Source of the DNA: a virus
Lineage: Duplodnaviria > Heunggongvirae > Uroviricota > Caudoviricetes
Direction: 5' to 3' (one strand)
Virus record (IMG/VR): IMGVR_UViG_2565956600_000007
DNA length: 12,520 nt
Below are positions 918-12,520 of the stretch, one piece after another (position 1 is the stretch's first letter; every line of letters starts with the position of its first letter). The translations under genes were made by a program, and so were the position numbers. The notes beneath the pieces were generated by a model, which was not told the DNA's origin, made no database searches, and saw only the letters and a list, made by a program, of their open reading frames with translations.

Positions 918-1610
918 ATGAACATAGGAAACCGAGTCAGACAACTTCGCCAGGCGAAGAACATGAAAATCGCCGATCTCGCTGAAGCAATAGGAGTGGA
1001 TGCGGCGAATATCTCACGCCTGGAAACAGGTAAGCAGAAACAATTCACTGAACAAGCCCTGAGTAATATTGCCAGGAGCTTAGGTGTTGATATTGCTGAT
1101 CTCTTTACCTCAGACTTCAAAAGTAATACTGTATGTAAAAACAGTATTAGTGAGGATGTTGCGCAGGTGAAGGATGTATTCCGTATTGAAATGCTGGATG
1201 TCAGTGCCAGTGCGGGAAATGGCCTTATCCAGGGCGGTGATGTCATTGATGTGATTCATGCCATTGAATACAGAACTGATAATGCTGTATCGATGTTTGG
1301 CGGACGGCCAGCCAATCACATTAAAGTTATCAACGTTCGTGGGGACAGTATGTGTCCAACCATTGAGCCAGGAGATCTCATCTTCGTTGATGTCAGTATC
1401 AATCAGTTTGATGGAGATGGTATCTATGTATTTGGTTTTGATGATAAAATTTATGTCAAACGACTGCAAATGATACCTGACAAACTACTGGTGATTTCTG
1501 ATAACCAGATTTACCGTGAATGGGGAATTACCAGCGAAAATGAACACCGGTTTATGGTCTTTGGAAAGGTCTTAATCAGCCAGTCACAAACCCTTAAGCG
1601 ACACAATTAA
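918..1610 (+). CDS. cI: CI-type prophage repressor, N-terminal HTH plus C-terminal S24 (LexA-like) autopeptidase, 230 aa
   Basis: N-terminal HTH (NRVRQLRQAKNMKIADLAEAIGVDAANISRLETGK). Ala-Gly linker (SASAGNG). C-terminal GDSM serine motif and VKRL lysine motif as in LexA/lambda CI. No Shine-Dalgarno upstream, consistent with a leaderless mRNA. Confidence 0.9.
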   Translation: MNIGNRVRQLRQAKNMKIADLAEAIGVDAANISRLETGKQKQFTEQALSNIARSLGVDIADLFTSDFKSNTVCKNSISEDVAQVKDVFRIEMLDVSASAGNGLIQGGDVIDVIHAIEYRTDNAVSMFGGRPANHIKVINVRGDSMCPTIEPGDLIFVDVSINQFDGDGIYVFGFDDKIYVKRLQMIPDKLLVISDNQIYREWGITSENEHRFMVFGKVLISQSQTLKRHN

Positions 1611-1704: not shown

Positions 1705-2129
1705 CTTCATTTTATCTTTCTTTCCAGACAAACAAACAAGGTACTAACAAAATTTGGTTGTAACACGGCGTATGGCACATGCGTCGTTAGCGGTCTGGGG
1801 ACGTTAAAGGGGACAATCCACTCCTTGCTCGGGCAAACAAACCAGGTAGCCGGAATGTGCAAGTCAATGATGATGCTGATAAGACGCCTAACCAGCGTGG
1901 CGATTCGGTTTGACGCCTGGGAAGAGACCAGGGTGCAACGATGAGGGCATTTATGGAGCCGCGACAAAGTGTGGTGCCGTAACTGGCTAAGTGCTCTCAG
2001 CGTTGTGGTAATCCGCGAAATGGCGCGGCGGTAAGTATGGCGGGGTTACTCTTTCCCCGTTGAGGACACCGGATTGTCAGGTTGACCATACGCCTGAGTG
2101 ACAACCCCACCACAACAGCCACTGCTTTG

Positions 2130-2175
2130 GCGGTACCAGTTTGTACCCTTGCTTCCGGCTGGTACCGCTCTTTTT
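2130..2175 (+). terminator. Strong hairpin plus T5 tract in the early-left leader (tL-like terminator or boxA-like element)
   Basis: Perfect 10-bp stem GCGGTACCAG (2130-2139) / CTGGTACCGC (2159-2168), 19-nt loop, then TCTTTTT (2169-2175). The 3' flank CGCTCTTTTTACAA resembles boxA-like antitermination sequences. Confidence 0.45.
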
Positions 2176-2312
2176 ACAAAACAGAGAAGAGCATCACCGG
2201 ACGACGGGCTCATAACCCAATCCATCCGGGCGGCTGCCACCGCAGGTGTTCTTCTCCGTTTTGTGGAGAAACCAACCGACCTTGCAGGGTCGATATGATG
2301 AGGAGCAGCAAA

Positions 2313-2675
2313 ATGGCTAGCGAACGCAGTACTGATGTGCAGGCATTTATTGGGGAGCTGGACGGCGGCGTATTTGAAACCAAAATCGGCGCAGTTCTCA
2401 GTGAAGTCGCTTCCGGTGTGATGAACACGAAAACCAAAGGTAAGGTCTCGCTCAACCTGGAAATCGAACCGTTTGATGAGAATCGTGTGAAAATCAAACA
2501 CAAACTCTCGTATGTTCGCCCGACTAACCGCGGGAAAATTTCCGAAGAAGACACCACCGAAACGCCGATGTATGTCAATCGCGGTGGTCGCCTGACTATT
2601 CTGCAGGAAGACCAGGGACAATTACTGACTCTTGCTGGTGAACCTGACGGAAAACTCCGCGCAGCAGGTCATTAA
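2313..2675 (+). CDS. Phage early protein, YfdP-like, 120 aa
   Basis: AGGAG Shine-Dalgarno at 2301-2305, 7 nt before the ATG at 2313. The longer six-frame ORF from 2082 has no ribosome-binding site and runs through the terminator-like hairpin. Size and position match the first gene of the YfdP-YfdQ-YfdR block (from memory). Confidence 0.6.
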   Translation: MASERSTDVQAFIGELDGGVFETKIGAVLSEVASGVMNTKTKGKVSLNLEIEPFDENRVKIKHKLSYVRPTNRGKISEEDTTETPMYVNRGGRLTILQEDQGQLLTLAGEPDGKLRAAGH

Positions 2676-2740
2676 TATCGTTCTTAATTAACTGATTATT
2701 TATCTCATCACTGAATATCTTTATATAGTGAGGACTTATT

Positions 2741-3565
2741 ATGTCTCAGAACTTAGACGCAACCGCAATTAATCAAATCCATGCCCTTATTTCTGCTCAG
2801 GGTGTTAATGAAATTATCAGTAAGATTGGTGCCGATGCTGTGGCATTGCCTGAGAATTTCCGCATTCATGATCTGGAAAAATTTAATTTAAATCGCTTCC
2901 GTTTCCGTGGTGCGCTTTCCACTGCCAGCATCGATGACTTTACCCGTTATTCTAAAGATCTTGCAGATGAAGGCACCCGCTGCTTTATCGATGCTGATAA
3001 TATGCGTGCCGTCAGTGTGCTTAACCTGGGTACTATTGATGAACCAGGTCACGCAGATAACACCGCCACTCTCAAACTGAAAAAGACAGCACCGTTCTCT
3101 GCTCTGTTGTCTGTTAATGGCGAGCGTAACTCCCAGAAATCACTGGCAGAATGGATTGAAGACTGGGCCGACTACCTTGTGGGCTTTGATGCTAATGGTG
3201 ACACCATTCAGGCAACAAAAGCGGCTGCGGCGGTCCGTAAAATCACGATTGAAGCAAACCAGACCGCTGATTTTGAAGATAATGACTTCAGCGGCAAACG
3301 CTCCCTGATGGAGTCTGTCGAAGCGAAGACTAAAGACATTATGCCAGTGGCATTTGAATTTAAATGCGTTCCGTTTGAAGGCCTTAAAGAACGTCCGTTT
3401 AAATTACGCCTCAGCATTATCACTGGCGATCGTCCTGTACTGGTTCTGCGCATTATTCAGCTGGAAGCGGTGCAGGAAGAAATGGCTAACGAATTTCGTG
3501 ATCTGCTTGTTGAGAAATTTAAAGACAGCAAAGTAGAAACCTTTATTGGTACTTTTACCGCCTGA
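2741..3565 (+). CDS. yfdQ: Phage protein, YfdQ-like (DUF2303), 274 aa
   Basis: GTGAGGA Shine-Dalgarno at 2728-2734. Length and order (120 aa, 274 aa, then an HD-domain protein) match the CPS-53/KplE1 yfdP-yfdQ-yfdR arrangement as I recall it. Not verified by search. Confidence 0.65.
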
Positions 3566-3577
3566 TTTCATTACTGC

Positions 3578-3599
3578 AAATGCCCCTGCGGGGGCATTT
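3578..3599 (+). other. Stem-loop between the yfdQ-like and yfdR-like genes
   Basis: Stem AAATGCCCC (3578-3586) / GGGGCATTT (3591-3599), loop TGCG. No extended U-tract beyond the stem, so it may be an attenuator or an RNA-processing or stability element. Confidence 0.4.
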
Positions 3600-3692
3600 A
3601 TGGAAACGTAATTGACTCAATAATCGCCGGATGGTGAGGGCTTTCTTTTACCAGAATTCAGCGCGGTGCAGCGCATATACGTGGAGAACAAA

Positions 3693-4217
3693 ATGTCATT
3701 TATTAAAACTTTTTCCGGGAAGCATTTTTATTATGACAGGATAAATAAAGACGACATCGTTATTAACGATATCGCGGTTTCTCTTTCAAATATCTGTCGC
3801 TTTGCAGGACATCTTTCACATTTCTACAGCGTCGCCCAACATGCGGTGCTTTGCAGCCAACTGGTACCGCAGGAATTTGCTTTTGAAGCGTTAATGCATG
3901 ATGCAACAGAAGCGTATTGCCAGGACATTCCCGCACCACTGAAACGCCTTCTTCCTGACTATAAACGGATGGAAGAAAAAATAGACGCCGTAATCCGTGA
4001 GAAATACGGGTTACCCCCGGTTATGAGTACGCCCGTGAAATATGCCGATCTCATCATGCTGGCAACCGAACGCCGCGATCTCGGGCTTGATGATGGCTCT
4101 TTCTGGCCCGTACTGGAAGGTATCCCGGCAACAGAGATGTTCAAAGTTATTCCACTGTCGCCAGGCCATACCTATGGGATGTTTATGGAACGCTTTAAAG
4201 AGTTAACTGAGTCGTAA
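3693..4217 (+). CDS. yfdR: HD-domain phosphohydrolase (YfdR-like 5'-deoxynucleotidase family), 174 aa
   Basis: HD-superfamily motifs: His in SVAQHAVL and the H-D pair in EALMHDATEAY. GGAG Shine-Dalgarno at 3683-3686, 6 nt before the ATG at 3693, which is preferred over the upstream ATG at 3666. Confidence 0.7.
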   Translation: MSFIKTFSGKHFYYDRINKDDIVINDIAVSLSNICRFAGHLSHFYSVAQHAVLCSQLVPQEFAFEALMHDATEAYCQDIPAPLKRLLPDYKRMEEKIDAVIREKYGLPPVMSTPVKYADLIMLATERRDLGLDDGSFWPVLEGIPATEMFKVIPLSPGHTYGMFMERFKELTES

Positions 4218-4325
4218 AAATCAGCACGTACGAATTCAAACTCTGCCATAAAAGAACATATAAGTAATTTATTAACATATAGATATAGGTTATATTACAA
4301 ATTGAAAAATTATTGGAGAGCAACA

Positions 4326-5192
4326 ATGAATCAAAATCCATTCTCATTCTATGACTTTCTTGGATATTTAATACCAGGTGGTTTTTTTATCCTATTAATG
4401 TATTTCTGTGGTTTGACATTCGATCTAGATATTGTTATTGACTTAAGTGAATTGCTCAGAGGTCAAAGTCAAATCTTTGGCATTTTGAACTACGCTTCAA
4501 TAGTTATTATATCTTATATAGCTGGACATTTTATTTCTATCACGTCAGCATTTTTTATCGAAAAATACATGAATAAAGAATTAGGATATCCTTCCAAATA
4601 TCTATTTAAAAAATTGATAGATACCTCAGAAAGCATTTGTAGCCCATCATGCGATGAGAGAAGCGCTGATAAAAAAACAAAAATAAAGAATCGCATAATC
4701 AAATGCGTATTATGTCCAATAATACTATGGGATTTTATAACACAAAAACTATGTTATTCTCAATCTCTACCATTTCATTTAGCTAATACAACATGGTTAA
4801 TGATCAAAGAAGGTTATGAGAAAAAGTTCATAACAAATCGCCAATTATTACAAGATAAAAACGGACTTGATGATGATCTCTTCAGATTGGCATATCATTA
4901 TGTTTATGAGTTTTCAAAACAACATCAAACAAAAATTCAAAACTATGTTGCATTATATGGTTTTTGCAGAAACATATGTTTAATCTTTATAATTTCATTT
5001 TGGGTATCAGTTCCAACCTTTATTTATCGATTATGTACTCATAGTGATTATCTTTATAGTTTACTTTCAATAATGCTTAGCTTTTTCTTCGTCTATGTTT
5101 TCTATGTTGGTTTTGTTAAATTTTATAGAAGATATACTTTAGAAGTATTAATGGCATTTGCTGTACTTCAAAGTAACGACACTATTCGTTAA
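4326..5192 (+). CDS. AT-rich integral membrane protein of unknown function (about 4 TM helices), candidate moron, 288 aa
   Basis: GGAGAG Shine-Dalgarno at 4315-4320 before the ATG at 4326. Hydrophobic segments: FLGYLIPGGFFILLMYFCGLTF, IFGILNYASIVIISYIAGHFISITSAFFI, YVALYGFCRNICLIFIISFWVSV, LYSLLSIMLSFFFVYVFYVGFV. Composition is much more AT-rich than the flanking phage genes, with Lys/Asn/Ile/Tyr-rich codon usage. Confidence 0.7.
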   Translation: MNQNPFSFYDFLGYLIPGGFFILLMYFCGLTFDLDIVIDLSELLRGQSQIFGILNYASIVIISYIAGHFISITSAFFIEKYMNKELGYPSKYLFKKLIDTSESICSPSCDERSADKKTKIKNRIIKCVLCPIILWDFITQKLCYSQSLPFHLANTTWLMIKEGYEKKFITNRQLLQDKNGLDDDLFRLAYHYVYEFSKQHQTKIQNYVALYGFCRNICLIFIISFWVSVPTFIYRLCTHSDYLYSLLSIMLSFFFVYVFYVGFVKFYRRYTLEVLMAFAVLQSNDTIR

Positions 5193-5233
5193 TAATGTTG
5201 CTCCCGTGTGCAGACGGGATAATGGAGAAACGT

Positions 5234-5440
5234 ATGCTGAACCTCGATTGTGTTCCTATCTCAACTTATTGCAAAGAAACTGGCGAAACTCCTGAAGCAA
5301 TAAACAAACGTGTACAGCGCGGTGTTTGGCGTGAAGGTGTTCAGGTTTTAAAGGTTGAAGGCGTTAAGGAGAGGTGGATTGATCTTAGTGAGGTTGCAAA
5401 ATGGGCCAGACAAAACTGCTCAAACTACCGCGCGGCGTAA
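5234..5440 (+). CDS. xis: Excisionase (Xis-like), about 68 aa
   Basis: Small basic protein immediately upstream of int, overlapping it by 40 nt as in lambda xis/int. GGAG at 5224-5227 precedes the ATG at 5234. Alternative in-frame starts at 5222 and 5195. Confidence 0.6.
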   Translation: MLNLDCVPISTYCKETGETPEAINKRVQRGVWREGVQVLKVEGVKERWIDLSEVAKWARQNCSNYRAA

Positions 5441-6573
5441 CAATCAGGAAACACCGCCAGGGAGAAACGATCAATATAACTTTCACCTACAAAGGAGTTA
5501 GATGTCGTGAGCCGCTTTCCAATCTGGAAGTAACATCAAAGAACATTAAATACGCCGAGCGTACACTCGGCGAAATCCATAATAAGATCGAAAGGGGAAC
5601 ATTCATTTATGCAGAATATTTTCCCCGTTCTGCTCGTTTGAAAATTTTTGGTAATGCTGCTGCAGGCAAAACGGTAAAGATGTACCTGGACGAATATCTT
5701 GAAATCTGCGAAACAAGAAAACTTTCACCCTCTACGATTGGTGGCTATAAAAAATGCCGTAGTGCGTTAGCCTCACTTCACATTTGCCCTGCAAGTGAAT
5801 TAACACCAGCAACCCTGAAAGCGTGGATTCAAAGCCAGAAAACAACCTTAAAAACCATTCGCAACCAGTTATCTTTCCTACGGTCAGCACTTGATGAAGC
5901 CGTGACCGATGGGGTACTTCAAATTAACCCCGTATCGTTAGTAACAGCTTCGCGCTACCAAAGTGATAAGTCAGAAGCAGAAAGCAGCTATGTGGTTGAT
6001 CCGCTATCACCAGCAGAAGTTGATGCATTACTAGCAGCAGCCGGAAACAAACAATGGGAAAATCTGTTCCGGTTCGCCATACATACAGGCCTGCGTAGTT
6101 CTGAATTATGTGCCCTACGATGGCATGATATCGACTTTGTTGGAAAAACAGCCCATGTTCAGAGCGCAAGTGTTGTCGGAGTTATCAAAGGAACAAAGAC
6201 AAAAGCCGGTACCCGTAAAGTTGAACTGACTGAAGAAGCAATGTTGGCGTTGATAAACCAGAAGCCATTTACATTCATGAAGGATGCTACTGTCTTTGAA
6301 GATCCAAAGACCAATAAACCCTGGGCAAGTGCTGATGCAATTAGGAAAAAAGCATGGGTGCCAACATTGCGAAAAGCAGGTATTCGTTACAGAAACCCAT
6401 ATCAAACCAGGCATACATTCGCCACCAGCCATATCAGCCGGGGAGCAAACCTGTTTTGGCTTGCGGCTCAAATGGGCCATAAAGGGCCTGAAATGTTATT
6501 CAGGCACTATGGACAATACTTGAAAGAGTATGATGGGAGGGCAAGTATCAAGGATAAAAAGGCTTTATTTTAA
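5401..6573 (+). CDS. int: Tyrosine recombinase, lambda-type phage integrase, 390 aa
   Basis: N-terminal arm-binding-like region (LPRGVTIRKHRQGETINITFTYKGVRCREPL). Catalytic signature residues: R in TGLRSSELCALRW, H-x-x-R in TRHTFATSH, and a C-terminal H...Y in GHKGPEMLFRHYGQY. Confidence 0.9.
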   Translation: MGQTKLLKLPRGVTIRKHRQGETINITFTYKGVRCREPLSNLEVTSKNIKYAERTLGEIHNKIERGTFIYAEYFPRSARLKIFGNAAAGKTVKMYLDEYLEICETRKLSPSTIGGYKKCRSALASLHICPASELTPATLKAWIQSQKTTLKTIRNQLSFLRSALDEAVTDGVLQINPVSLVTASRYQSDKSEAESSYVVDPLSPAEVDALLAAAGNKQWENLFRFAIHTGLRSSELCALRWHDIDFVGKTAHVQSASVVGVIKGTKTKAGTRKVELTEEAMLALINQKPFTFMKDATVFEDPKTNKPWASADAIRKKAWVPTLRKAGIRYRNPYQTRHTFATSHISRGANLFWLAAQMGHKGPEMLFRHYGQYLKEYDGRASIKDKKALF

Positions 6574-7182
6574 GTCATTATGCCAATCGTCTACTGTTTG
6601 AAACCAAATTTTTAACCTTTGCATAAAGGTACGATCCTTTTTGGGAGGGTGGTACCTTTGAAAAGAAGTATGTAACGCTTCGATAACTCCCATACAAGCA
6701 TCAATTACTTCTTGTGCTTTAACCGGGCGATCGGCATCTGAAAGCTTGTGAGCGACCTCACAATCCAGAGTTGCTTTCTCTAGTACAGATGAGAACACCT
6801 CGTCAGGTATATACAGTCCTCTGCTTTCCAAAATGCAAATCAGTTTGGAAACTTGTTGAGCTTTAGCCAAGATAGTTAACAAGTATGAAACAGAAGCCTT
6901 TGTTCTATCCTTTTGCAACCTTAACAATCGATGCTTTGATGCTCTAATTTTAGGTTGAGTTGTCTGACTGAGCCAATAGTTAGAAGAAATATCAGAAATT
7001 TCAATAACTAACTTTGAAATAGCATCAATAATTGATTTCGATTCAGAACGTGTCGCCAGTTTTACAGAATTATTGTACGCAACTCGCCATCCAATGAAAA
7101 CTAAGCAGACGCTAACTACTGTGATACACCACGAATACTGTCCTATTTGTGCTACTAATGACATTGGTTCCGTACTGATCAA
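6565..7182 (-). CDS. Membrane-anchored protein of unknown function (N-terminal TM helix plus helical domain), third gene of the cargo operon, 205 aa
   Basis: TTG start at 7182 preceded by AAGAGG at 6 nt spacing; alternative ATG at 7164. N-terminal hydrophobic segment YSWCITVVSVCLVFIGWRVAY. The 3' end overlaps the int stop convergently by 9 bp. Confidence 0.55.
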   Translation of the reverse strand: MISTEPMSLVAQIGQYSWCITVVSVCLVFIGWRVAYNNSVKLATRSESKSIIDAISKLVIEISDISSNYWLSQTTQPKIRASKHRLLRLQKDRTKASVSYLLTILAKAQQVSKLICILESRGLYIPDEVFSSVLEKATLDCEVAHKLSDADRPVKAQEVIDACMGVIEALHTSFQRYHPPKKDRTFMQRLKIWFQTVDDWHNDLK

Positions 7183-7192
7183 CTATCGCCTC

Positions 7193-7519
7193 TTATACTC
7201 TTTCTGGTTGTGCTAAATCAATAAATTTATCAATCTGTTCTTTGTAGAACGGAACATCACTTTTTATAATCAAACGTGCTTTAACGTTGGCTTTAGGTAT
7301 CCCTTCCTTACGGATGAGACCTCCAAACGCCTCTTCTAAGAAAGAGGAACCAACACCCAGTGCTATACCGCGAAAATCAACCACAATCTCCTGTTCAGTA
7401 CCCTTCAGCGCAGGCACCAAAAACTCTCTACGAAATCTTTCCGCACTGTGTGGGCTATCCGTTGTGTAACGTCCGAAAGGTGTTCTGGAGAACTCCTTCG
7501 CTATGACGATATTTCTCAT
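7193..7519 (-). CDS. STAS-like (DUF4325-like, anti-sigma-factor-antagonist-like) protein, 108 aa
   Basis: Small protein with a VVDFRGIALGVGSSFLEEAFGGL segment resembling the SpoIIAA/RsbV region that carries the phosphorylatable Ser. AGGAG Shine-Dalgarno 8 nt upstream of the ATG. Starts 4 nt after the ATPase gene stop. Confidence 0.6.
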   Translation of the reverse strand: MRNIVIAKEFSRTPFGRYTTDSPHSAERFRREFLVPALKGTEQEIVVDFRGIALGVGSSFLEEAFGGLIRKEGIPKANVKARLIIKSDVPFYKEQIDKFIDLAQPERV

Positions 7520-7523
7520 AAAA

Positions 7524-8435
7524 TCATCTCCTGGGAACCAGCGACCATTGTAGTAAAGTACCCGGTATGTACTCAGCTAGCTTCTCACATCGAGGACTAC
7601 TGTCATTAGAATTATAGCTATAACGAGCCCTTCCTGTTAGTATCAGAAGTGTCTCATTATCCTCACAACCTGCCCCAATAGGTCTCTTGATATCTTCAGA
7701 GCCATTTCCCCGTCCGGAACCAACAAAGCGGGATTCCCCTACTAACATAGCTCTTTCCACAGAAGATACTTCGTTTTGAATGCTATGACCATCACCATTA
7801 GGCACGAAACTTCTATAAATCCCCAATCCAAGGTCACAAACGATAAAAACGACTTTATTTTCATCACGATTGAACCAAGCGCACTGCCACCATCGTTTAC
7901 CTTTGAGAAGCTGAATATCTGACTCGAACCCCTCATCTTCATACGCATGATGAGAAACATTGAGCAAAGCTTCACTAATCGCTGTCAGCAGTAAGCCTAA
8001 CTGTTCATTATTAAGCAGAGCACTTTTCTGCAGCATGAGTACTGTTTCAACAATATGCTCGTAAGGTTCGACAGCTGACTGAAAGTATCGTTCCTCCCTC
8101 GTAAGTGCATTCAGTTTCTCTTCTGTGCCAGCAAGCAAAGCACGAGCAAGTCCAGTACCAACGATCCATCTATGCCCAGATGGGTTATCATCCTTTTTAG
8201 GCCATTTAAAACGTATAAAATTAGGGTCCCGGGTTAAAAATTGAGCTCTATTTACTATGGCAAAGAACAGTACCGATGCCGCAGCTGAGGCAAATTTTAC
8301 CTTGGACAAATCAACTATAACTCGACCTTTATTTTTTACTCCAATCGATTCAATCGAGTTGATGAAGTTCAATGTCCCAGCCCTAGAATCATCTGAGTAA
8401 ATGCAAAATTTGCTTGGGGGTACCAGTATGGTCAT
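7524..8435 (-). CDS. GHKL-type ATPase (HATPase_c-like, RsbW/SpoIIAB-like putative Ser kinase) with a roughly 140-aa N-terminal domain of unknown function, 303 aa
   Basis: Bergerat-fold motifs in the correct order and spacing: N-box EALLNVSHHA, G1 box VCDLGLGI, G2 box GSGRGNG. First gene of a tightly packed three-gene minus-strand operon with an AT-rich upstream region (8436-8583). Confidence 0.65.
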   Translation of the reverse strand: MTILVPPSKFCIYSDDSRAGTLNFINSIESIGVKNKGRVIVDLSKVKFASAAASVLFFAIVNRAQFLTRDPNFIRFKWPKKDDNPSGHRWIVGTGLARALLAGTEEKLNALTREERYFQSAVEPYEHIVETVLMLQKSALLNNEQLGLLLTAISEALLNVSHHAYEDEGFESDIQLLKGKRWWQCAWFNRDENKVVFIVCDLGLGIYRSFVPNGDGHSIQNEVSSVERAMLVGESRFVGSGRGNGSEDIKRPIGAGCEDNETLLILTGRARYSYNSNDSSPRCEKLAEYIPGTLLQWSLVPRR

Positions 8436-8583
8436 AGCGATGTCATTCTTATACGATGGATTTATAGATTATCTACTATTCATAGTTGGTTATGAAGACT
8501 GGGATATAACAGTAAAAGATACGTGTAAGATCCGCAAGATAGTTAATGTCGAAAAAAATCATTAATTACATCAAGTTAGTGAT

Positions 8584-8619
8584 ATTTGGACTCGGGTTCA
8601 ACTCCCGCCAGCTCCACCA
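8584..8619 (+). other. ssrA: tmRNA (ssrA) 3'-terminal segment (T-arm, acceptor 3' strand, CCA): att core or displaced ssrA end
   Basis: ATTTGGACTCGGGTTCAACTCCCGCCAGCTCCACCA closely matches the 3' end of enterobacterial tmRNA as I recall it (GGACGCGGGTTCAACTCCCGCCAGCTCCACCA). Sequence upstream of 8584 is unrelated to tmRNA, so this is only a fragment. Confidence 0.7.
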
Positions 8620-8666
8620 AAATTCTCCATCGGTGATTACCAGAGTCATCCGATGAAGTCCTAAGA

Positions 8667-8698
8667 GCCCGCACGGCGCAAGCCCTGCGGGCTTTTTT
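8667..8698 (+). terminator. Intrinsic terminator downstream of the ssrA 3' segment
   Basis: Stem GCCCGCA (8667-8673) / TGCGGGC (8686-8692), 12-nt loop, then TTTTTT (8693-8698). Confidence 0.7.
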
Positions 8699-8752
8699 GT
8701 GCCCTCAATTTGTCCCGCGAAGTCCGAAGAAAACTAATTAAATCCGATCCTT

Positions 8753-8806
8753 TTAGGCACCTTGTTAGGCACCTCATAAAGCTTTATTGTTTTTTGAGGT
8801 GCCTAA
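8753..8806. promoter_or_regulatory. Three copies of a 9-bp motif TTAGGCACC upstream of the P4-type integrase (candidate arm-type or regulatory sites)
   Basis: Direct copies at 8753-8761 and 8765-8773, and an inverted copy GGTGCCTAA at 8798-8806, 19 bp upstream of the int ATG. Confidence 0.4.
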
Positions 8807-8824
8807 AACTATGGAAACCCGGCA

Positions 8825-10066
8825 ATGGCAAGACAAACCAAACCTCTATCCGTTAAAGAAATAGAATCAGCCAAACCCAAGGAGGCGGACTACGTTCTCT
8901 ATGATGGCGATGGCCTTGAGCTACTCATTAAATCCAGCGGGAGTAAAATCTGGCAGTTTCGCTACATTCGCCCTGTCACCAAGAAACGAGCAAAGAAGAG
9001 CATAGGCTCCTACCCGTCAGTTACCCTTGCCGATGCCAGAAACTACCGTGCAGAGTCCCGCTCACTACTGGCTAAACAGATCGATCCGCAGGAACATCAG
9101 CAAGAACAATTGCGCAGTTCGCTGGAAGCCAAAACCAACACTTTCCAACTCGTAGCTGAACGTTGGTGGAATGTGAAGAAAGCCAGTGTGACAGAGGACT
9201 ATGCGGAAGATATCTGGCGCTCTCTTGAAAGAGACGTCTTTCCTGCGATTGGCGACGTTAGCGTTACAGATATTAAAGCTCATACACTGGTTCAGGCCGT
9301 ACAACCGGTTCAGGCCAGAGGAGCACTGGAAACTGTTCGTCGCCTGTGCCAACGTATTAATGAGGTCATGATCTATGCCCAGAACACAGGGCTGATTGAT
9401 GCTGTTCCCAGCGTTAATATCGGTAAAGCCTTCGAGAAGCCTCAGAAAAAGAACATGCCCAGCATTCGACCGGATCAGCTACCTCAGTTAATGCAGACGA
9501 TGCGAACAGCCAGCATTAGCCTTTCCACACGCTGCCTGTTCATGTGGCAACTTCTTACTATTACCCGCCCTGCCGAAGCGGCTGAAGCTCTCTGGGAAGA
9601 GGTAGACATAGAAGCGCGAGAGTGGAAGATTCCTGCAGCACGCATGAAAATGAACCGCGACCATACTGTTCCATTGTCAGATGAAGCAATTGCGATACTA
9701 GAGATGATGAAGCCGTTAAGTGGAAATCGAGAATTTATCTTTCCCAGCCGCATCAAGCCAAACCAGCCGATGAACAGTCAGACCGTAAACGCATCGCTAA
9801 AACGCGCAGGTTTTGGTGGGGTGCTCGTTTCACACGGCCTGCGATCTATCGCCAGTACAGCCCTTAATGAGCAGGGATTTCCACCTGATGTTATTGAGGC
9901 TGCACTTGCTCATGTGGATAAGAATGAGGTTCGTCGTGCGTATAACCGTAGTGATTATCTTGAGCAGCGACGGCCTATGATGCAGTGGTGGGCTGATTTT
10001 GTGATGGCTGCAGATCACGGTAGTATGATTGAAGGAGGGATAAAGGCAATGCGGTTAGTTGGATGA
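8825..10066 (+). CDS. intA: P4/CP4-57-type tyrosine integrase, 413 aa
   Basis: N-terminal arm-binding-like region (KPKEADYVLYDGDGLELLIKSSGSKIWQFRY). Catalytic R in TITRPAEA, H-x-x-R in HGLRSIAST, C-terminal Y in RRAYNRSDY. Lies about 200 bp downstream of the ssrA 3' segment in the same orientation, as for intA next to ssrA in E. coli K-12 (from memory). Confidence 0.9.
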   Translation: MARQTKPLSVKEIESAKPKEADYVLYDGDGLELLIKSSGSKIWQFRYIRPVTKKRAKKSIGSYPSVTLADARNYRAESRSLLAKQIDPQEHQQEQLRSSLEAKTNTFQLVAERWWNVKKASVTEDYAEDIWRSLERDVFPAIGDVSVTDIKAHTLVQAVQPVQARGALETVRRLCQRINEVMIYAQNTGLIDAVPSVNIGKAFEKPQKKNMPSIRPDQLPQLMQTMRTASISLSTRCLFMWQLLTITRPAEAAEALWEEVDIEAREWKIPAARMKMNRDHTVPLSDEAIAILEMMKPLSGNREFIFPSRIKPNQPMNSQTVNASLKRAGFGGVLVSHGLRSIASTALNEQGFPPDVIEAALAHVDKNEVRRAYNRSDYLEQRRPMMQWWADFVMAADHGSMIEGGIKAMRLVG

Positions 10067-10146
10067 CATGTCGTAGCTAAAACCCGTTCTGTTTTTGGGT
10101 AGATTAACCTGAAGGTCTGCAATTTTAAATGACGCTGAAAGAAGTT

Positions 10147-10172
10147 AAACCCTGCTCTTAAGCAGGGTTTTT
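10147..10172. terminator. Bidirectional intrinsic terminator between the convergent integrase and cargo operon
   Basis: Stem AAACCCTGCT (10147-10156) / AGCAGGGTTT (10161-10170), loop CTTA, flanked by T and A runs. Confidence 0.6.
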
Positions 10173-10204
10173 ATGATTTATTCTAATTTTGGTTTTGAAT
10201 CTTT

Positions 10205-11299
10205 CTATTTTAAATCAGCCTTTGCGGCTCGAATATCTGCGTTTTTTGCTGAGTATTCCCATTCGTCAGCGATTCTAAATAGCATTGCAGAAGTACGGAC
10301 GCAGTGGGGCATTGAATTTGCCCATTCTCGGTACTGCTCAGCTAATATCCTTTCTTGGTTTCCACCTTCGTAACGCATACGAGCAAATACCCCCCTTTTA
10401 TTGTACCTACCAATTTGTATACCTTGCTCTAACTCATCAGAAGATAATATTTCAATGATGTGCCGAATTGCTTCATGTGGCCAGGAATTATCTACTGAGC
10501 TATTAGGGGCATGTGCCAGAATTTTTCCTATTACATGATCAGTGATTTCTTGGCGATGATGCAATTTTGCTAAATGGCGTACATTCTCACACCAATCTTC
10601 AAGTTTATCTTGATCAATTTCATTGTCTATCTGCCCTGGTAGTATTCGTAATTTTTCAAGTAATCTGTATATAGAAGTAGCTCTTTTAACTTCCAACTCC
10701 GATGGTTCTGTTTGTTCATCTTCGTCACTACGATATACAATACATATTGCTTCTATAAAAACCTCTGGCTTTTTCATCATTAGACGATGCAGGATAAGTG
10801 GCTCATCGCTATCCGGAAAACAAGGCAAGTAGGTCATTTCTTTAAATGCCAAATCTGTTTCAGAAACATCGTTACGTTGTTTGAGTTCATCAAAAACTTT
10901 TTTTACATAGTACGATAGCATTGTATCAAATTGGATATCCTGGCTATTTATTTCTTTAACGACTATATCTAGAAGATATAAAAGTGTTGTAGATGGAATC
11001 TCAGAAAGGCGTTGATTTGCTGATATAATAGCAGCAAGACCCCGGCCCCTTTCTATATATTTATCCATAAGAACAAATAAATCCGAAGTTTTACCCATCA
11101 TTGCAATGGGTTGTTTTTGCAACCAATATTTTTCGTTGATGTTATCTTCAAACCCTTCAATAATGCTCCATATCTCTTGTGAGTCTCTTAACGATGCTAA
11201 GATTTTCCCAGCCCTATCAGGGGTAATTTTAAACTGTTTAAAATACACTTTTATTTTATTAAGCCATTCAGCACCAAAGCATTCAACACCATATTGCAT
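10205..11299 (-). CDS. Hypothetical protein (AT-rich, predicted largely helical), distal gene of a translationally coupled pair, about 364 aa
   Basis: ATG at 11297-11299 overlaps the upstream stop as TAATG. The six-frame TTG start at 11305 is less likely. No Walker A, nuclease or other motif recognisable by eye. Confidence 0.65.
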   Translation of the reverse strand: MQYGVECFGAEWLNKIKVYFKQFKITPDRAGKILASLRDSQEIWSIIEGFEDNINEKYWLQKQPIAMMGKTSDLFVLMDKYIERGRGLAAIISANQRLSEIPSTTLLYLLDIVVKEINSQDIQFDTMLSYYVKKVFDELKQRNDVSETDLAFKEMTYLPCFPDSDEPLILHRLMMKKPEVFIEAICIVYRSDEDEQTEPSELEVKRATSIYRLLEKLRILPGQIDNEIDQDKLEDWCENVRHLAKLHHRQEITDHVIGKILAHAPNSSVDNSWPHEAIRHIIEILSSDELEQGIQIGRYNKRGVFARMRYEGGNQERILAEQYREWANSMPHCVRTSAMLFRIADEWEYSAKNADIRAAKADLK

Positions 11300-12520
11300 T
11301 AACAACCCACAAACTTCATCAATATTTTTTTGTTGTTAATAAGCATTACAAACAAATCATTTAATTTTTCTTCATCCAACGAGAGTGCTGATATATGCCT
11401 TGCTGCAATAAAAACATTATTAACTTGTTGAAAAAGGTCTTTCACCCCAGACAAACCTAAAGTAAAGTATATTTCCCTAAGTTTTTCACTTCGCATTTCT
11501 TCGACAGAAGAAAAAATTCCGCCAGCATTTTCAATTGACTCTTCAATATCAGAATCCCAATCATTGAAAATCCATAAACTGGCTCTAACCATGTCAATTG
11601 GTTTATAATTATCAAGTATTTTCGCTATTTTTTCCATAGACTCAAATTTAAATGCCCAGTTCGCATCTGAATATTTTTTATGGCGAGAATACTCATGACG
11701 CAAAGCCTCCCATACGATGAACTGATCCTCTTCAGTTTGTTGAGAAAGGCAAAGTTCAAGATGAGAAAGTGTTTCATCTATTGCATTCTCAGGGAATGAG
11801 CTTAAATGAGAGATTAGGATTTCCCATCTTGTTGGGAGTATACCTGCAAGTTTAATTGCTTCTTGGATAATAAAGATTTGCCCCTCCCAAACAACGCCCC
11901 ACGTTAGTTTTTCTACATCTTTATCCGACTCTCTGAACTTCATTTTTTGGTTTTGATCAGAGGTATCATGGGAGCGAGGAAGGAGATTTTGTAACAAACT
12001 CCACCCAATACTAGGAACAATAGTGATAATTTTTTTTATAATTGCATTTCTAACTTTTACTGGTGCCCATGTATTAGGAGACCATGCCAGAAAAATGGTT
12101 CTTAAACTATTAAGAGGGCGATCTGAGTAAGTTCCTCCGGGATCTATTACAGCGAGTTTTGCAAGACAGATTGCAGCGCGTAATAGATATGTTTGTTCCC
12201 AAGCCAAGGCTTCCAATGCCCATTTTAATCCATGATAATGACTTCGAGGAGTTAACAGCCCTTTATCTTCATTGAATATTGGAGCAATCATTTCCCCATT
12301 GCCCTTAAGCAATTGCTCAAGGGCATCAAGGAAAGGGCCAGGGGCAGCTTCTGCCAGCAGCGGAAGTTGATCTCGCAAACTAACAAATAGTCGATGGTCG
12401 TTAGCAAGTCCCGGAATACTCTGAACTATTTTGTTAACAAAATCTTGGGGTGTCATACCAGTAACCCGGAATTCGGCCTGTTCATGTAATATGATCTTAC
12501 CCAGCAATAGTGGACACGCG
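11299..12520 (-). CDS. Hypothetical protein, 5'-partial (the reading frame is open to the window edge; more than 402 aa)
   Basis: The frame is open through 12508-12519 on the minus strand, so the true start is outside the window. AT-rich, with no recognisable catalytic motif. Confidence 0.65.
   Translation of the reverse strand, partial: ACPLLLGKIILHEQAEFRVTGMTPQDFVNKIVQSIPGLANDHRLFVSLRDQLPLLAEAAPGPFLDALEQLLKGNGEMIAPIFNEDKGLLTPRSHYHGLKWALEALAWEQTYLLRAAICLAKLAVIDPGGTYSDRPLNSLRTIFLAWSPNTWAPVKVRNAIIKKIITIVPSIGWSLLQNLLPRSHDTSDQNQKMKFRESDKDVEKLTWGVVWEGQIFIIQEAIKLAGILPTRWEILISHLSSFPENAIDETLSHLELCLSQQTEEDQFIVWEALRHEYSRHKKYSDANWAFKFESMEKIAKILDNYKPIDMVRASLWIFNDWDSDIEESIENAGGIFSSVEEMRSEKLREIYFTLGLSGVKDLFQQVNNVFIAARHISALSLDEEKLNDLFVMLINNKKILMKFVGC

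Follow-up and report, generated by a model that had tools for sequence, protein, structure and literature searches.

The window, meaning the whole stretch of 12,520 nucleotides analysed (Caudoviricetes record IMGVR_UViG_2565956600_000007), contains a cassette of three minus-strand genes, here termed A, B and C, which lies between the integrase gene of a lambdoid E. coli prophage and a duplicated 3′ end of ssrA. The features of the locus are as follows.

7524–8435, minus strand: gene A, a STAS-GHKL serine kinase of 303 residues (RefSeq WP_000154254.1, annotated 'hypothetical protein').
8076–8435, minus strand: N-terminal STAS domain of A, approximately residues 1–120, containing F48 (which aligns with VapK F54) and S50.
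7524–8066, minus strand: C-terminal GHKL (Bergerat-fold) kinase domain of A, approximately residues 124–303.
7193–7519, minus strand: gene B, a DUF4325 STAS-like protein of 108 residues (WP_001244589.1), the presumed kinase substrate and switch.
7346–7348, minus strand: TCC codon of B Ser58, candidate phospho-acceptor in the motif G-S-S-F-L-E-E-A-F-G-G-L, as read from the sequence.
6565–7182, minus strand: gene C, a membrane-anchored four-helix-bundle protein of 205 residues from a TTG start or 199 from the ATG at 7164 (WP_000060412.1), the presumed output or effector.
7078–7134, minus strand: single transmembrane helix of C, approximately residues 17–35 of the 205-residue form, predicted N-out/C-in from hydropathy and flanking charge.
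5401–6573, plus strand: lambdoid prophage integrase (Arm-DNA-bind_2 and Phage_integrase), from the open reading frame, the RefSeq annotation and the Pfam domains of equivalent integrases in homologous loci.
8588–8619, plus strand: att core, a duplicated ssrA 3′ end (tmRNA T-arm and acceptor, ending CCACCA), from the sequence and a partial Rfam match.
8468–8496, minus strand: weak sigma-70-like promoter candidate upstream of A, TTCATA-17-GATAAT, from a consensus scan (9 of 12 matches), inside the 150-bp spacer between A and att.

The first-pass annotation of this DNA had described three tightly packed genes positioned between the integrase and an att-like ssrA segment. The open reading frames bear out both the packing, with gaps of 4 nt between A and B and 10 nt between B and C, and the placement. 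The 10-nt gap corresponds to the TTG start of C; RefSeq starts C at the ATG at 7164, which yields 199 residues and a 28-nt gap. Given an AAGAGG Shine-Dalgarno sequence 7 nt ahead of the TTG and the existence of 205-residue homologues, the longer form is plausible. The integrase gene and C are convergent, the 3′ end of the former overlapping the end of the latter by 9 nt. At the att core the Rfam tmRNA match is partial, with high posterior probability for bases 8588–8619 only, and ARAGORN detects no complete tmRNA in the window. The impression that the cassette is more AT-rich than the phage core holds, as its GC content is 41.2% and that of C alone 38%, compared with 46.4% in the early region of the prophage and 44.2% in the integrase gene, but the bias is modest. 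No LexA box was found upstream of A. Promoter-like sites there are no commoner than in shuffled sequence, so that the site at 8468–8496 is a candidate only. Neither a sigma factor nor a PP2C phosphatase gene occurs among the open reading frames and annotations of the window or of homologous loci.

Every one of the 65 loci in which A occurs has B and C directly behind it in unchanged order, even where identity in A falls to 30%, a linkage far beyond chance. These loci come from Enterobacterales, Vibrionaceae and Pasteurellaceae, with Haemophilus and Photobacterium among them, as well as from AS1, an isolated Marinobacter phage. Approximately 2.5% of complete E. coli genomes (129 + 10 of 5426) carry the cassette, the well-studied strains UTI89 and NU14 among them. 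It is almost absent from sequenced isolated phages: among 50,697 deposited phage genomes, tblastn with A and megablast with the cassette returned no match, and tblastn with B returned one good match, phage AS1. All three proteins have hypothetical annotations, an IS3 element has inserted into the cassette in one genome and C is truncated at one locus (L014), features that would fit decaying or non-functional remnants. The conservation data effectively refute such a reading, which we consider highly improbable. All three frames are intact in the other 64 of the 65 loci, across Enterobacterales, Vibrionaceae, Pasteurellaceae and the Marinobacter phage, and catalytic and motif residues are invariant. 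The apparent truncation or absence of C in several Klebsiella contigs, which would have suggested counter-selection of a toxin, is a gene-calling artefact, as each of these contigs retains an intact frame whose non-ATG start the gene callers had missed.

Structure prediction was run on A and C. Comparison of the predicted model places the kinase domain of A nearest to SpoIIAB, RsbW and UsfX, and its motifs comprise an N box (E155/N159), the strand K178-G-K180-R181-W-W-Q, a G1 box (D201xGxG205), a G2 box (R242-G243-x-G245) and G292-T293. Residues E155, N159, D201, G203, G205, G243 and G245 are invariant in 25 homologues and align with those of VapK and CapK, the kinases of two systems considered below. 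The initial description of A as an RsbW/SpoIIAB-type GHKL kinase with N, G1 and G2 boxes is thus confirmed. The fold assignment rests on structure comparison, since the score of A against Pfam PF13581 (HATPase_c_2), 22.9 bits, lies below the gathering threshold of 27.4; some A homologues have a precomputed PF13581 match. A PDB sequence search with A gave one marginal match, to the RsbW N box. The N-terminal domain, previously left without assignment, is now identified as a STAS domain, as in VapK and CapK.

For B, the Pfam search gave a clear family, DUF4325 (PF14213, 51.9 bits against a cut-off of 23; homologue clusters, n=151), rather than the canonical STAS family of SpoIIAA and RsbV. A GSSF segment had been singled out where anti-sigma antagonists carry their phosphoserine, and this small STAS-like protein indeed has G57-S58-S59-F60 at the expected position. 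Ser58 aligns with VapS Ser48 and is Ser in 23 of 24 aligned family members and Thr in the remaining one. These sequence relationships strongly suggest that B is the substrate of kinase A. PDB sequence matches of B were dismissed as chance.

The closest known system to the cassette is VapKSC/CapKS (Chambers, Rani, Min, Villa & Corbett, EMBO J 2026; PMC13373217). VapK and A are both proteins of approximately 300 residues in which an N-terminal STAS domain is fused to a GHKL kinase, with a direct identity of approximately 18%. The A family profile alone aligns only weakly with VapK (hhalign probability 6%, 10 bits), and the homology becomes clear only with an intermediate-sequence profile: once broadened with second-iteration relatives, the profile matches VapK at 48.8 bits (E 3e-17, residues 28–284) and CapK at 28.6 bits. 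B and VapS are both DUF4325 proteins (51.9 and 62.7 bits, respectively) of approximately 110 residues in which helix 2 begins with a conserved Ser. Both systems are three-gene operons with a common gene order, and neither includes a phosphatase or a sigma factor. CapK-CapS resembles the A–B pair in layout; there a STAS-GHKL kinase phosphorylates its STAS partner on a conserved serine. The catalytic N-box Asn of CapK, N218, has its equivalent in A N159, and the K-G-K-R strand that precedes the G1 box of A resembles CapK K237-G-K239, predicted to bind ssDNA. The first-pass annotation could assign the operon to no named defence system. This still holds for defence models, as A, B and C have no match in PADLOC-DB 2.0.0 at E ≤ 1 or among NCBIfam models, but not for the kinase–STAS pair, which is homologous to VapK–VapS. 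Its proposed scheme of a kinase acting through a STAS phospho-switch on an effector is the mechanism shown experimentally for VapKSC, where the mutants VapS S48A and S48E abolish function and where approximately 2-log protection against phage Bas42 requires the nuclease, the serine and the predicted ssDNA-binding residue of the kinase (PMC13373217).

The third gene of VapKSC encodes a cytoplasmic PIN (VapC) nuclease, whereas that of the cassette encodes a single-pass membrane protein with a four-helix bundle. The cassette is a previously undescribed VapKSC relative in which the PIN toxin is replaced by membrane protein C. The RefSeq accessions of A, B and C are absent from the supplementary files of the VapKSC paper, although proteins may be listed there under different identifiers. 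An N-terminal HTH is present in CapK, and CapS has a DNA-binding wHTH at its C terminus; A starts at the STAS domain and B is STAS only. CapK-CapS controls a downstream immune operon, while downstream of A and B there is only C, followed by the convergent integrase. The aromatic residue that stacks on ssDNA is F54 in VapK and W68 in CapK, but at the equivalent position, A F48, an aromatic residue (F, Y or W) is present in 14 of 25 family members, and the others vary. The activating signal may therefore differ. B ends approximately 20 residues earlier in the alignment and lacks the C-terminal helix of VapS (residues 94–116), which inhibits VapC by reaching into its active site (PMC13373217). 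Any inhibition of C must consequently work differently.

The lack of this inhibitory helix weakens an antitoxin role for B and would suit a reversed, SpoIIAB-like wiring. Here A would bind and hold C, unphosphorylated B would compete for A and free C, and phosphorylation of B would reset the switch. The relationship of the A kinase domain to SpoIIAB, RsbW and UsfX points the same way, as these proteins bind a STAS antagonist in addition to their target. However, although the kinase fold of A is of the anti-sigma class, the cassette departs from SpoIIAB-SpoIIAA and RsbW-RsbV modules in having no sigma target and a membrane protein as third partner. A also carries its own STAS domain, which to our knowledge anti-sigma kinases lack. 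In classical partner switches the antagonist is normally regenerated by a PP2C phosphatase, and none is encoded in or beside the operon. Furthermore, in VapKSC, the nearest characterised homologue, it is the STAS protein and not the kinase that binds the toxin (PMC13373217). We regard the reversed wiring as unlikely.

Protein C has one hydrophobic segment, at approximately residues 17–35 (Kyte-Doolittle maximum 1.81), and its predicted structure is all-helical (pLDDT 84), consisting of the transmembrane helix and a four-helix bundle. This agrees with the earlier view of a single N-terminal transmembrane helix followed by a helical soluble domain. No Lys or Arg precedes the segment and three follow it, an N-out/C-in charge bias from which the bundle is predicted to be cytoplasmic and within reach of A and B. 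No member of the C alignment has a convincing match to PIN or any other Pfam family, and the label DUF4760 borne by one UniRef homologue record was rejected on the same grounds. Neither a toxin-like fold nor a nuclease motif was found. An LATRSESKS stretch was considered as a phosphorylation target and dropped, as its serines are not kept in Haemophilus, Photobacterium and AS1. In this region of the juxtamembrane helix only R39, E41, K43 and D47 are conserved, forming an invariant polar face. C is the fastest-evolving component of the cassette, with 29–37% identity where B retains 51–73%.

Such rapid divergence is often seen in components that contact an invader. Combined with the lack of a toxin-like fold and with a polar face suggestive of a conserved protein–protein contact, it raises the question of whether C is a toxin at all. 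C might instead tether the A–B pair to the inner membrane or serve as a sensor there, and so localise or activate the pair, for instance in response to incoming phage DNA or a disturbed envelope, with the output passing through other host or phage proteins that are phosphorylated, or through B acting elsewhere. This arrangement appears improbable given that none of the contexts surveyed shows an additional output gene linked to the cassette, and that the sensor function of CapK and VapK sits in the STAS-GHKL groove of the kinase itself (PMC13373217).

We favour, with a probability of roughly 50%, a model where the prophage carries, in this cassette, a VapKSC-type phospho-switch with three components and a membrane-acting output. 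In the resting lysogen, unphosphorylated B would bind the cytoplasmic four-helix bundle of C and hold it inactive. Infection or a DNA-damage cue would activate A, possibly through ssDNA in the groove between STAS and kinase domains as in CapK and VapK, and A would phosphorylate B on Ser58. Phospho-B would then dissociate from C, and the freed C would act at the inner membrane; its most probable mode of action would be to oligomerise and dissipate the membrane potential. The infection would be aborted or the superinfecting phage excluded. The activating signal, the interaction of B with C, the activity of C and the anti-phage role of the whole are here inferred.

The genomic positions of the cassette bear on its role. 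The proposal that it is cargo between integrase and att is borne out in homologous loci, with this junction occupied at several chromosomal sites, but the cassette also occurs elsewhere. In Providencia it lies at the lysis/terminase junction and in Yersinia behind the tail genes; phage AS1 has it in the immunity region, beside cI/cro and next to a putative repressor, and it also forms a chromosomal islet without phage. The cassette thus occupies typical moron slots, and its homologues combine strict three-gene linkage with accessory-gene positions in unrelated prophages. VapKSC is likewise found on mobile elements, and in defence neighbourhoods. In a sister prophage of E. coli JJ1886, with a 96% identical integrase, the slot between integrase and att instead holds an AAA_15 ATPase and a PD-Lambda-5_B match (411 bits), and in other sister prophages it holds an IS or genes of no known function. 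Next to a 98% identical integrase there is a cassette allele that has diverged (52% identity in A), which indicates cassette exchange. The junction in this lambdoid prophage group is a cargo-exchanging hotspot.

A role in the prophage life cycle or in host physiology, such as DNA-damage-responsive timing of induction or lysis, or envelope modulation as lysogenic conversion, is a further alternative. DNA damage is the cue that induces lambdoid prophages, and the AS1 cassette adjoins a putative repressor. CapK and VapK respond to DNA damage, and the boundary between immunity and general stress response is described as blurred by the VapKSC authors themselves (PMC13373217). Yet the cassette is dispensable and replaceable, since the slot in sister prophages with near-identical integrases has different cargo or is empty; among prophages it is found at four distinct positions, in addition to the phage-free islet, and A has no upstream LexA box. 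Such a role seems doubtful. The cassette probably defends the lysogen against other phages.

A possible functional parallel is provided by RexA-RexB of phage lambda, a prophage-encoded pair expressed in the lysogen from beside the immunity genes. There a cytoplasmic sensor governs a protein of the inner membrane which, once activated, depolarises the cell, so that superinfection is aborted. The position of the cassette in phage AS1, adjoining immunity genes, is similar. The two are not known to be related in sequence or fold; Rex consists of two components, its membrane protein RexB is polytopic, and it lacks a kinase or STAS switch. It may tentatively be proposed, at slightly less than even odds, that the cassette is a new anti-phage or abortive-infection system, in which a damage- or infection-sensing STAS-GHKL kinase and DUF4325 switch controls single-pass inner-membrane effectors of a new four-helix-bundle family, as a kinase-controlled functional analogue of Rex.

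The first description of the kinase–STAS switch in phage defence appeared only in 2026 and gave it two outputs, namely a repressor and a PIN toxin (PMC13373217). If confirmed, the cassette would add a membrane-acting output to this logic, assign a function to three families currently labelled hypothetical (phrog_3364, phrog_30059 and part of DUF4325) and add a system that current defence finders miss. Its presence in UTI89 and NU14 makes it experimentally accessible, and a like sensor and switch on a different effector provides a way to examine what the kinase senses and how a phosphorylated STAS protein frees structurally unrelated partners. If the model is true, the kinase–STAS pair would be a portable trigger of general use, to which phages and bacteria couple unrelated killing modules.

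The stretch is E. coli chromosome spanning the right end of a lambdoid prophage, and is 100% identical to strain NADC1036 over 6400-8900 and 99.6% identical over 1746-12520. Within the prophage, ymfK/ymfT/ymfL-type immunity genes are followed by yfdP, yfdQ and yfdR. The features around the cassette are:

5401-6573, prophage integrase
6565-7182, minus strand, gene C, ORF of 205 aa from TTG (membrane-anchored protein)
7193-7519, minus strand, gene B, ORF of 108 aa (STAS-like protein)
7524-8435, minus strand, gene A, ORF of 303 aa (STAS-GHKL kinase)
8588-8619, duplicated ssrA 3' end (att core)
8825-10066, CP4-57-type integrase

ORFs A, B and C separate the prophage integrase from the att core, with intergenic gaps of 4 nt and 10 nt, and the cassette has a GC content of 41.2% versus 46.4% for the prophage early region. 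The first-pass annotation, which had described three close-packed minus-strand genes between int and att, more AT-rich than the phage core, was right in every particular. RefSeq starts C at an ATG at 7164; the TTG start has a good AAGAGG ribosome-binding site upstream, and 205-aa homologues exist. The 3' end of C reaches 9 nt into the convergent integrase gene.

Three further features of the window lie outside the cassette. A perfect CTGT-N8-ACAG LexA-box-like sequence (CTGTATGTAAAAACAG, 1129-1144, plus strand) is found inside an S24-peptidase repressor-like gene (918-1610); matches of this kind occur in the window about as often as expected by chance. Rfam gives a match below threshold to IsrM, a Salmonella sRNA (8610-8698, plus strand; 32 bits versus a gathering score of 376, E 2e-7). 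It covers the segment that separates the ssrA 3' end from the terminator hairpin at 8680-8694, and the most likely explanation is shared island sequence flanking ssrA, not an sRNA gene. The region that directly follows the CP4-57-type integrase, 10205-12507 (minus strand, 37.5% GC), holds two ORFs of 366 and 402 aa in different frames, neither with a Pfam or PADLOC match. The NADC1036 equivalent is annotated as one 750-aa hypothetical gene and the comparison with this strain over 10.8 kb contains one gap; a frameshift in the strain of the window may account for the split.

The three genes behave as a unit. Profile searches of 65 A-carrying loci, taken from representative genomes, from contigs that encode specific homologues and from IMG/VR viral contigs, placed B then C directly downstream of A on the same strand in all 65, among them a Haemophilus locus (A 32% identity) and a viral contig (A 30%). 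C is truncated in a single case, to 101 aa (locus L014, 11260-11565), and C genes apparently missing from Klebsiella contigs proved to be gene-calling artefacts. Divergence is uneven, with identities in the same loci of 43-58% for A, 51-73% for B and 29-37% for C. Such conservation excludes reading the cassette as a decaying remnant. Among 5426 complete E. coli genomes, 129 carry the window's allele, UTI89 and NU14 among them, and a further 10 carry a second allele. UTI89 has the sequence of 6565-8600 unchanged. One complete E. coli genome (NZ_CP070045.1, FDAARGOS_1303) has an IS3-family element inside the cassette.

The genomic contexts of the cassette are diverse:

E. coli, Salmonella and Klebsiella: int-att junction of lambdoid prophages (integrase of Arm-DNA-bind_2 type), the chromosomal site being ssrA, a position adjoining csiD/glaH or one adjoining a LysR-family gene
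Yersinia: after prophage tail genes
Providencia: between lysis cassette and small terminase subunit
Photobacterium: small chromosomal islet, adjoined in one contig by an IS4 N-terminal fragment
Marinobacter phage AS1 (isolated temperate phage, MK088078.1): complete homologous triad, at 2871-4797 of locus L069

In AS1 the triad (AS1_41, 78.6 bits; AS1_40, 103 bits; AS1_39, 30.8 bits with one TM helix) lies in the immunity region, immediately downstream of an HTH protein and in divergent orientation to a cro/cI gene. About 50 extra residues, basic in character, extend the N-terminus of the AS1 kinase homologue; a similar extension is found in many weaker A relatives with lengths of 350-380 aa. 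The int-att slot is itself variable, as three prophages with integrases 93-97% identical in DNA hold different contents:

JJ1886 (NC_022648.1; locus L027, 5924-8636): AAA_15 ATPase (577 aa) and a DNA adenine methylase, the latter a PADLOC PD-Lambda-5_B match of 411 bits
WP2-S18-ESBL-07 (locus L028, 5893-7081, minus strand): two overlapping genes of 127 and 271 aa without Pfam or PADLOC match, which may be another uncharacterised cargo pair
AR_0374: an IS4-family element only

The JJ1886 integrase is ~96% identical in DNA to that of the window, and its different neighbours therefore indicate that the int-att junction exchanges cargo. The second cassette allele (A 52% identical) adjoins an integrase 98% identical in protein to the window's. 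These contexts are hallmarks of accessory (moron or defence) cargo rather than core phage functions, in agreement with the cargo status first proposed. The positions beside the AS1 repressor and at the prophage end, reading inward from att, recall lambda rexAB and fit expression in the lysogen. A less probable alternative to defence is a role of the cassette in the prophage's own damage response. Francisella phage vB_FhiM_KIRK encodes, between repressor and integrase, a consecutive 293-aa protein of unknown function, 112-aa DUF4325 protein and 125-aa TM protein (Fhv_0046-0048; PMC7924643), possibly a distant version of the cassette as judged from the published gene table. A second cargo position is suggested at 4302-5192 (plus strand), between a yfdR-like gene and the xis/int genes, since sister prophages such as JJ1886 have other small genes there. 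In the window it holds a 296-aa ORF of 28.4% GC, far below its neighbours, with several hydrophobic segments. Pfam gives no match to this ORF, and PADLOC only a weak one (E 1.4e-5), to Csx27, a membrane protein associated with Cas13b.

By sequence, A gives a sub-threshold HATPase_c_2 match (22.9 bits versus 27.4) and a marginal RsbW N-box match. The GHKL N, G1 and G2 boxes that had been read in the first gene are nevertheless borne out, as the Bergerat-fold motif set is invariant across 25 aligned homologues, the most distant at 41% identity:

N box: E155, N159
G1 box: D201-x-G203-x-G205
G2 box: R242-G243-x-G245
G292-T293
Family-specific strand: G179-x-R-W-W-Q

Homologues of A form ~163 clusters at 90% identity, every one annotated as hypothetical, mostly from Enterobacterales with others from Vibrio, Photobacterium, Salinivibrio, Rheinheimera and metagenomes. 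Searched by profile, 1.84 billion cluster representatives yielded 101 relatives at E <= 1e-30 and 1179 at E <= 1e-10, which makes the cassette one branch of a large STAS-GHKL family. B, the most conserved cassette protein, is a clear member of Pfam DUF4325 ('STAS-like'; 51.9 bits versus a cut-off of 23), confirming its earlier assignment. Its motif G-S58-S59-F-L-E-E-A-F-G-G-L-I-R is almost invariant. Of 24 family members, 23 have Ser at residue 58 and one has Thr.

The closest characterised relatives are the kinase-STAS systems VapKSC and CapK-CapS (Chambers et al., EMBO J 2026; PMC13373217). VapKSC is a three-gene operon of VapK (STAS-GHKL, 296 aa), VapS (STAS domain and short C-terminal helix, 116 aa) and the PIN toxin VapC, which VapS binds and inhibits and the phosphomimetic S48E frees; the operon gives ~100-fold protection against phage Bas42, lost in VapC D28A, VapS S48A and VapK F54A (PMC13373217). 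CapK has HTH, STAS and GHKL domains and is activated by ssDNA to phosphorylate Ser54 of CapS, a STAS and wHTH repressor, de-repressing an adjacent immune operon (PMC13373217). Compared with the protein sequences in the appendix of that paper, the unaided A family profile scarcely picks up VapK (10 bits, hhalign E 0.006). A profile broadened with 127 second-iteration relatives matches VapK at 48.8 bits (E 3e-17 as a single comparison) over residues 28-284, covering both domains, and CapK at 28.6 bits. The N box, G1, G2 and G3 motifs of both kinases line up with A, VapK F54 takes the position of A F48, and K237-G-K239-R of CapK, a predicted ssDNA contact, corresponds to A K178-G-K180-R181. VapS is likewise a DUF4325 protein (62.7 bits), and its Ser48 aligns with B Ser58 by BLASTP and MAFFT, placing the GSSF segment of the second gene at the phosphoserine position as anticipated. 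There are also differences: only 14 of 25 family members have an aromatic at A position 48, A and B are without the HTH and wHTH domains of CapK and CapS, B lacks the C-terminal inhibitory helix of VapS, and C is not a PIN nuclease.

The STAS domain of A contains F48-A49-S50 (S50 codon 8286-8288), the same triplet as VapS F46-A47-S48. Of 25 homologues of A, 23 have Ser or Thr at position 50, where VapK has Arg. As Ser50 sits where a phospho-acceptor would be expected, autophosphorylation or pseudo-substrate autoinhibition of A is a possibility.

C has no Pfam, NCBIfam or PADLOC match, and structure searches returned generic or designed helical bundles only. Its single hydrophobic helix has no basic residues before it and three after, predicting an N-out/C-in orientation. 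The structure prediction is all-helical (pLDDT 84), consistent with the one N-terminal TM helix and helical soluble domain originally described, and models one long helix that leaves the membrane to join a cytoplasmic four-helix bundle. Conservation is seen in a juxtamembrane polar face (R39, E41, K43, D47 in 199-aa numbering) and in a T-L-D-C-E motif. C always accompanies the A-B pair and its conserved bundle is predicted to face the cytoplasm. C is most simply read as a putative effector, and a sensor or tether role is a less probable alternative.

Our analysis supports a model in which, by homology, A probably phosphorylates B on Ser58: active site and acceptor are both conserved, and the two genes are always linked. 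Having neither phosphatase nor sigma factor, the operon fits a one-way trigger as in VapKSC rather than a reversible developmental switch. We infer that C may be a toxin, that B may bind it and that the cassette may defend against phage. Unphosphorylated B would keep C inactive until an infection cue, possibly ssDNA, activates A, although the ssDNA-sensing residue is not universally conserved. Phospho-B would then release C, whose simplest action at the inner membrane would be to oligomerise and collapse the membrane potential, and the infecting phage would be aborted or excluded. Less probably, kinase A itself sequesters C. We give the whole chain from kinase A through B and C to defence a probability of about one half.

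The partner-switching interpretation of the first-pass annotation is supported, as the homologous VapKSC uses a kinase, STAS and effector switch (PMC13373217). Its statement that no named system could be assigned holds in part: PADLOC misses the cassette, but the sensor-switch pair belongs to a family characterised in 2026, and the cassette is not categorically new. In the searched literature no description of a kinase-STAS pair coupled to a membrane protein was found, and the RefSeq accessions of A, B and C are in no paper recovered by literature search and absent from the VapKSC supplementary files. As a combination of three genes that includes one for a membrane-anchored four-helix-bundle protein, the cassette is undescribed, and PADLOC does not detect it. 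The IS3-interrupted cassette and the truncated C of L014 represent rare natural knock-outs that can be compared with intact strains. Conservation of the cassette reaches from Enterobacterales to a Marinobacter phage, and standard uropathogenic E. coli strains carry it.
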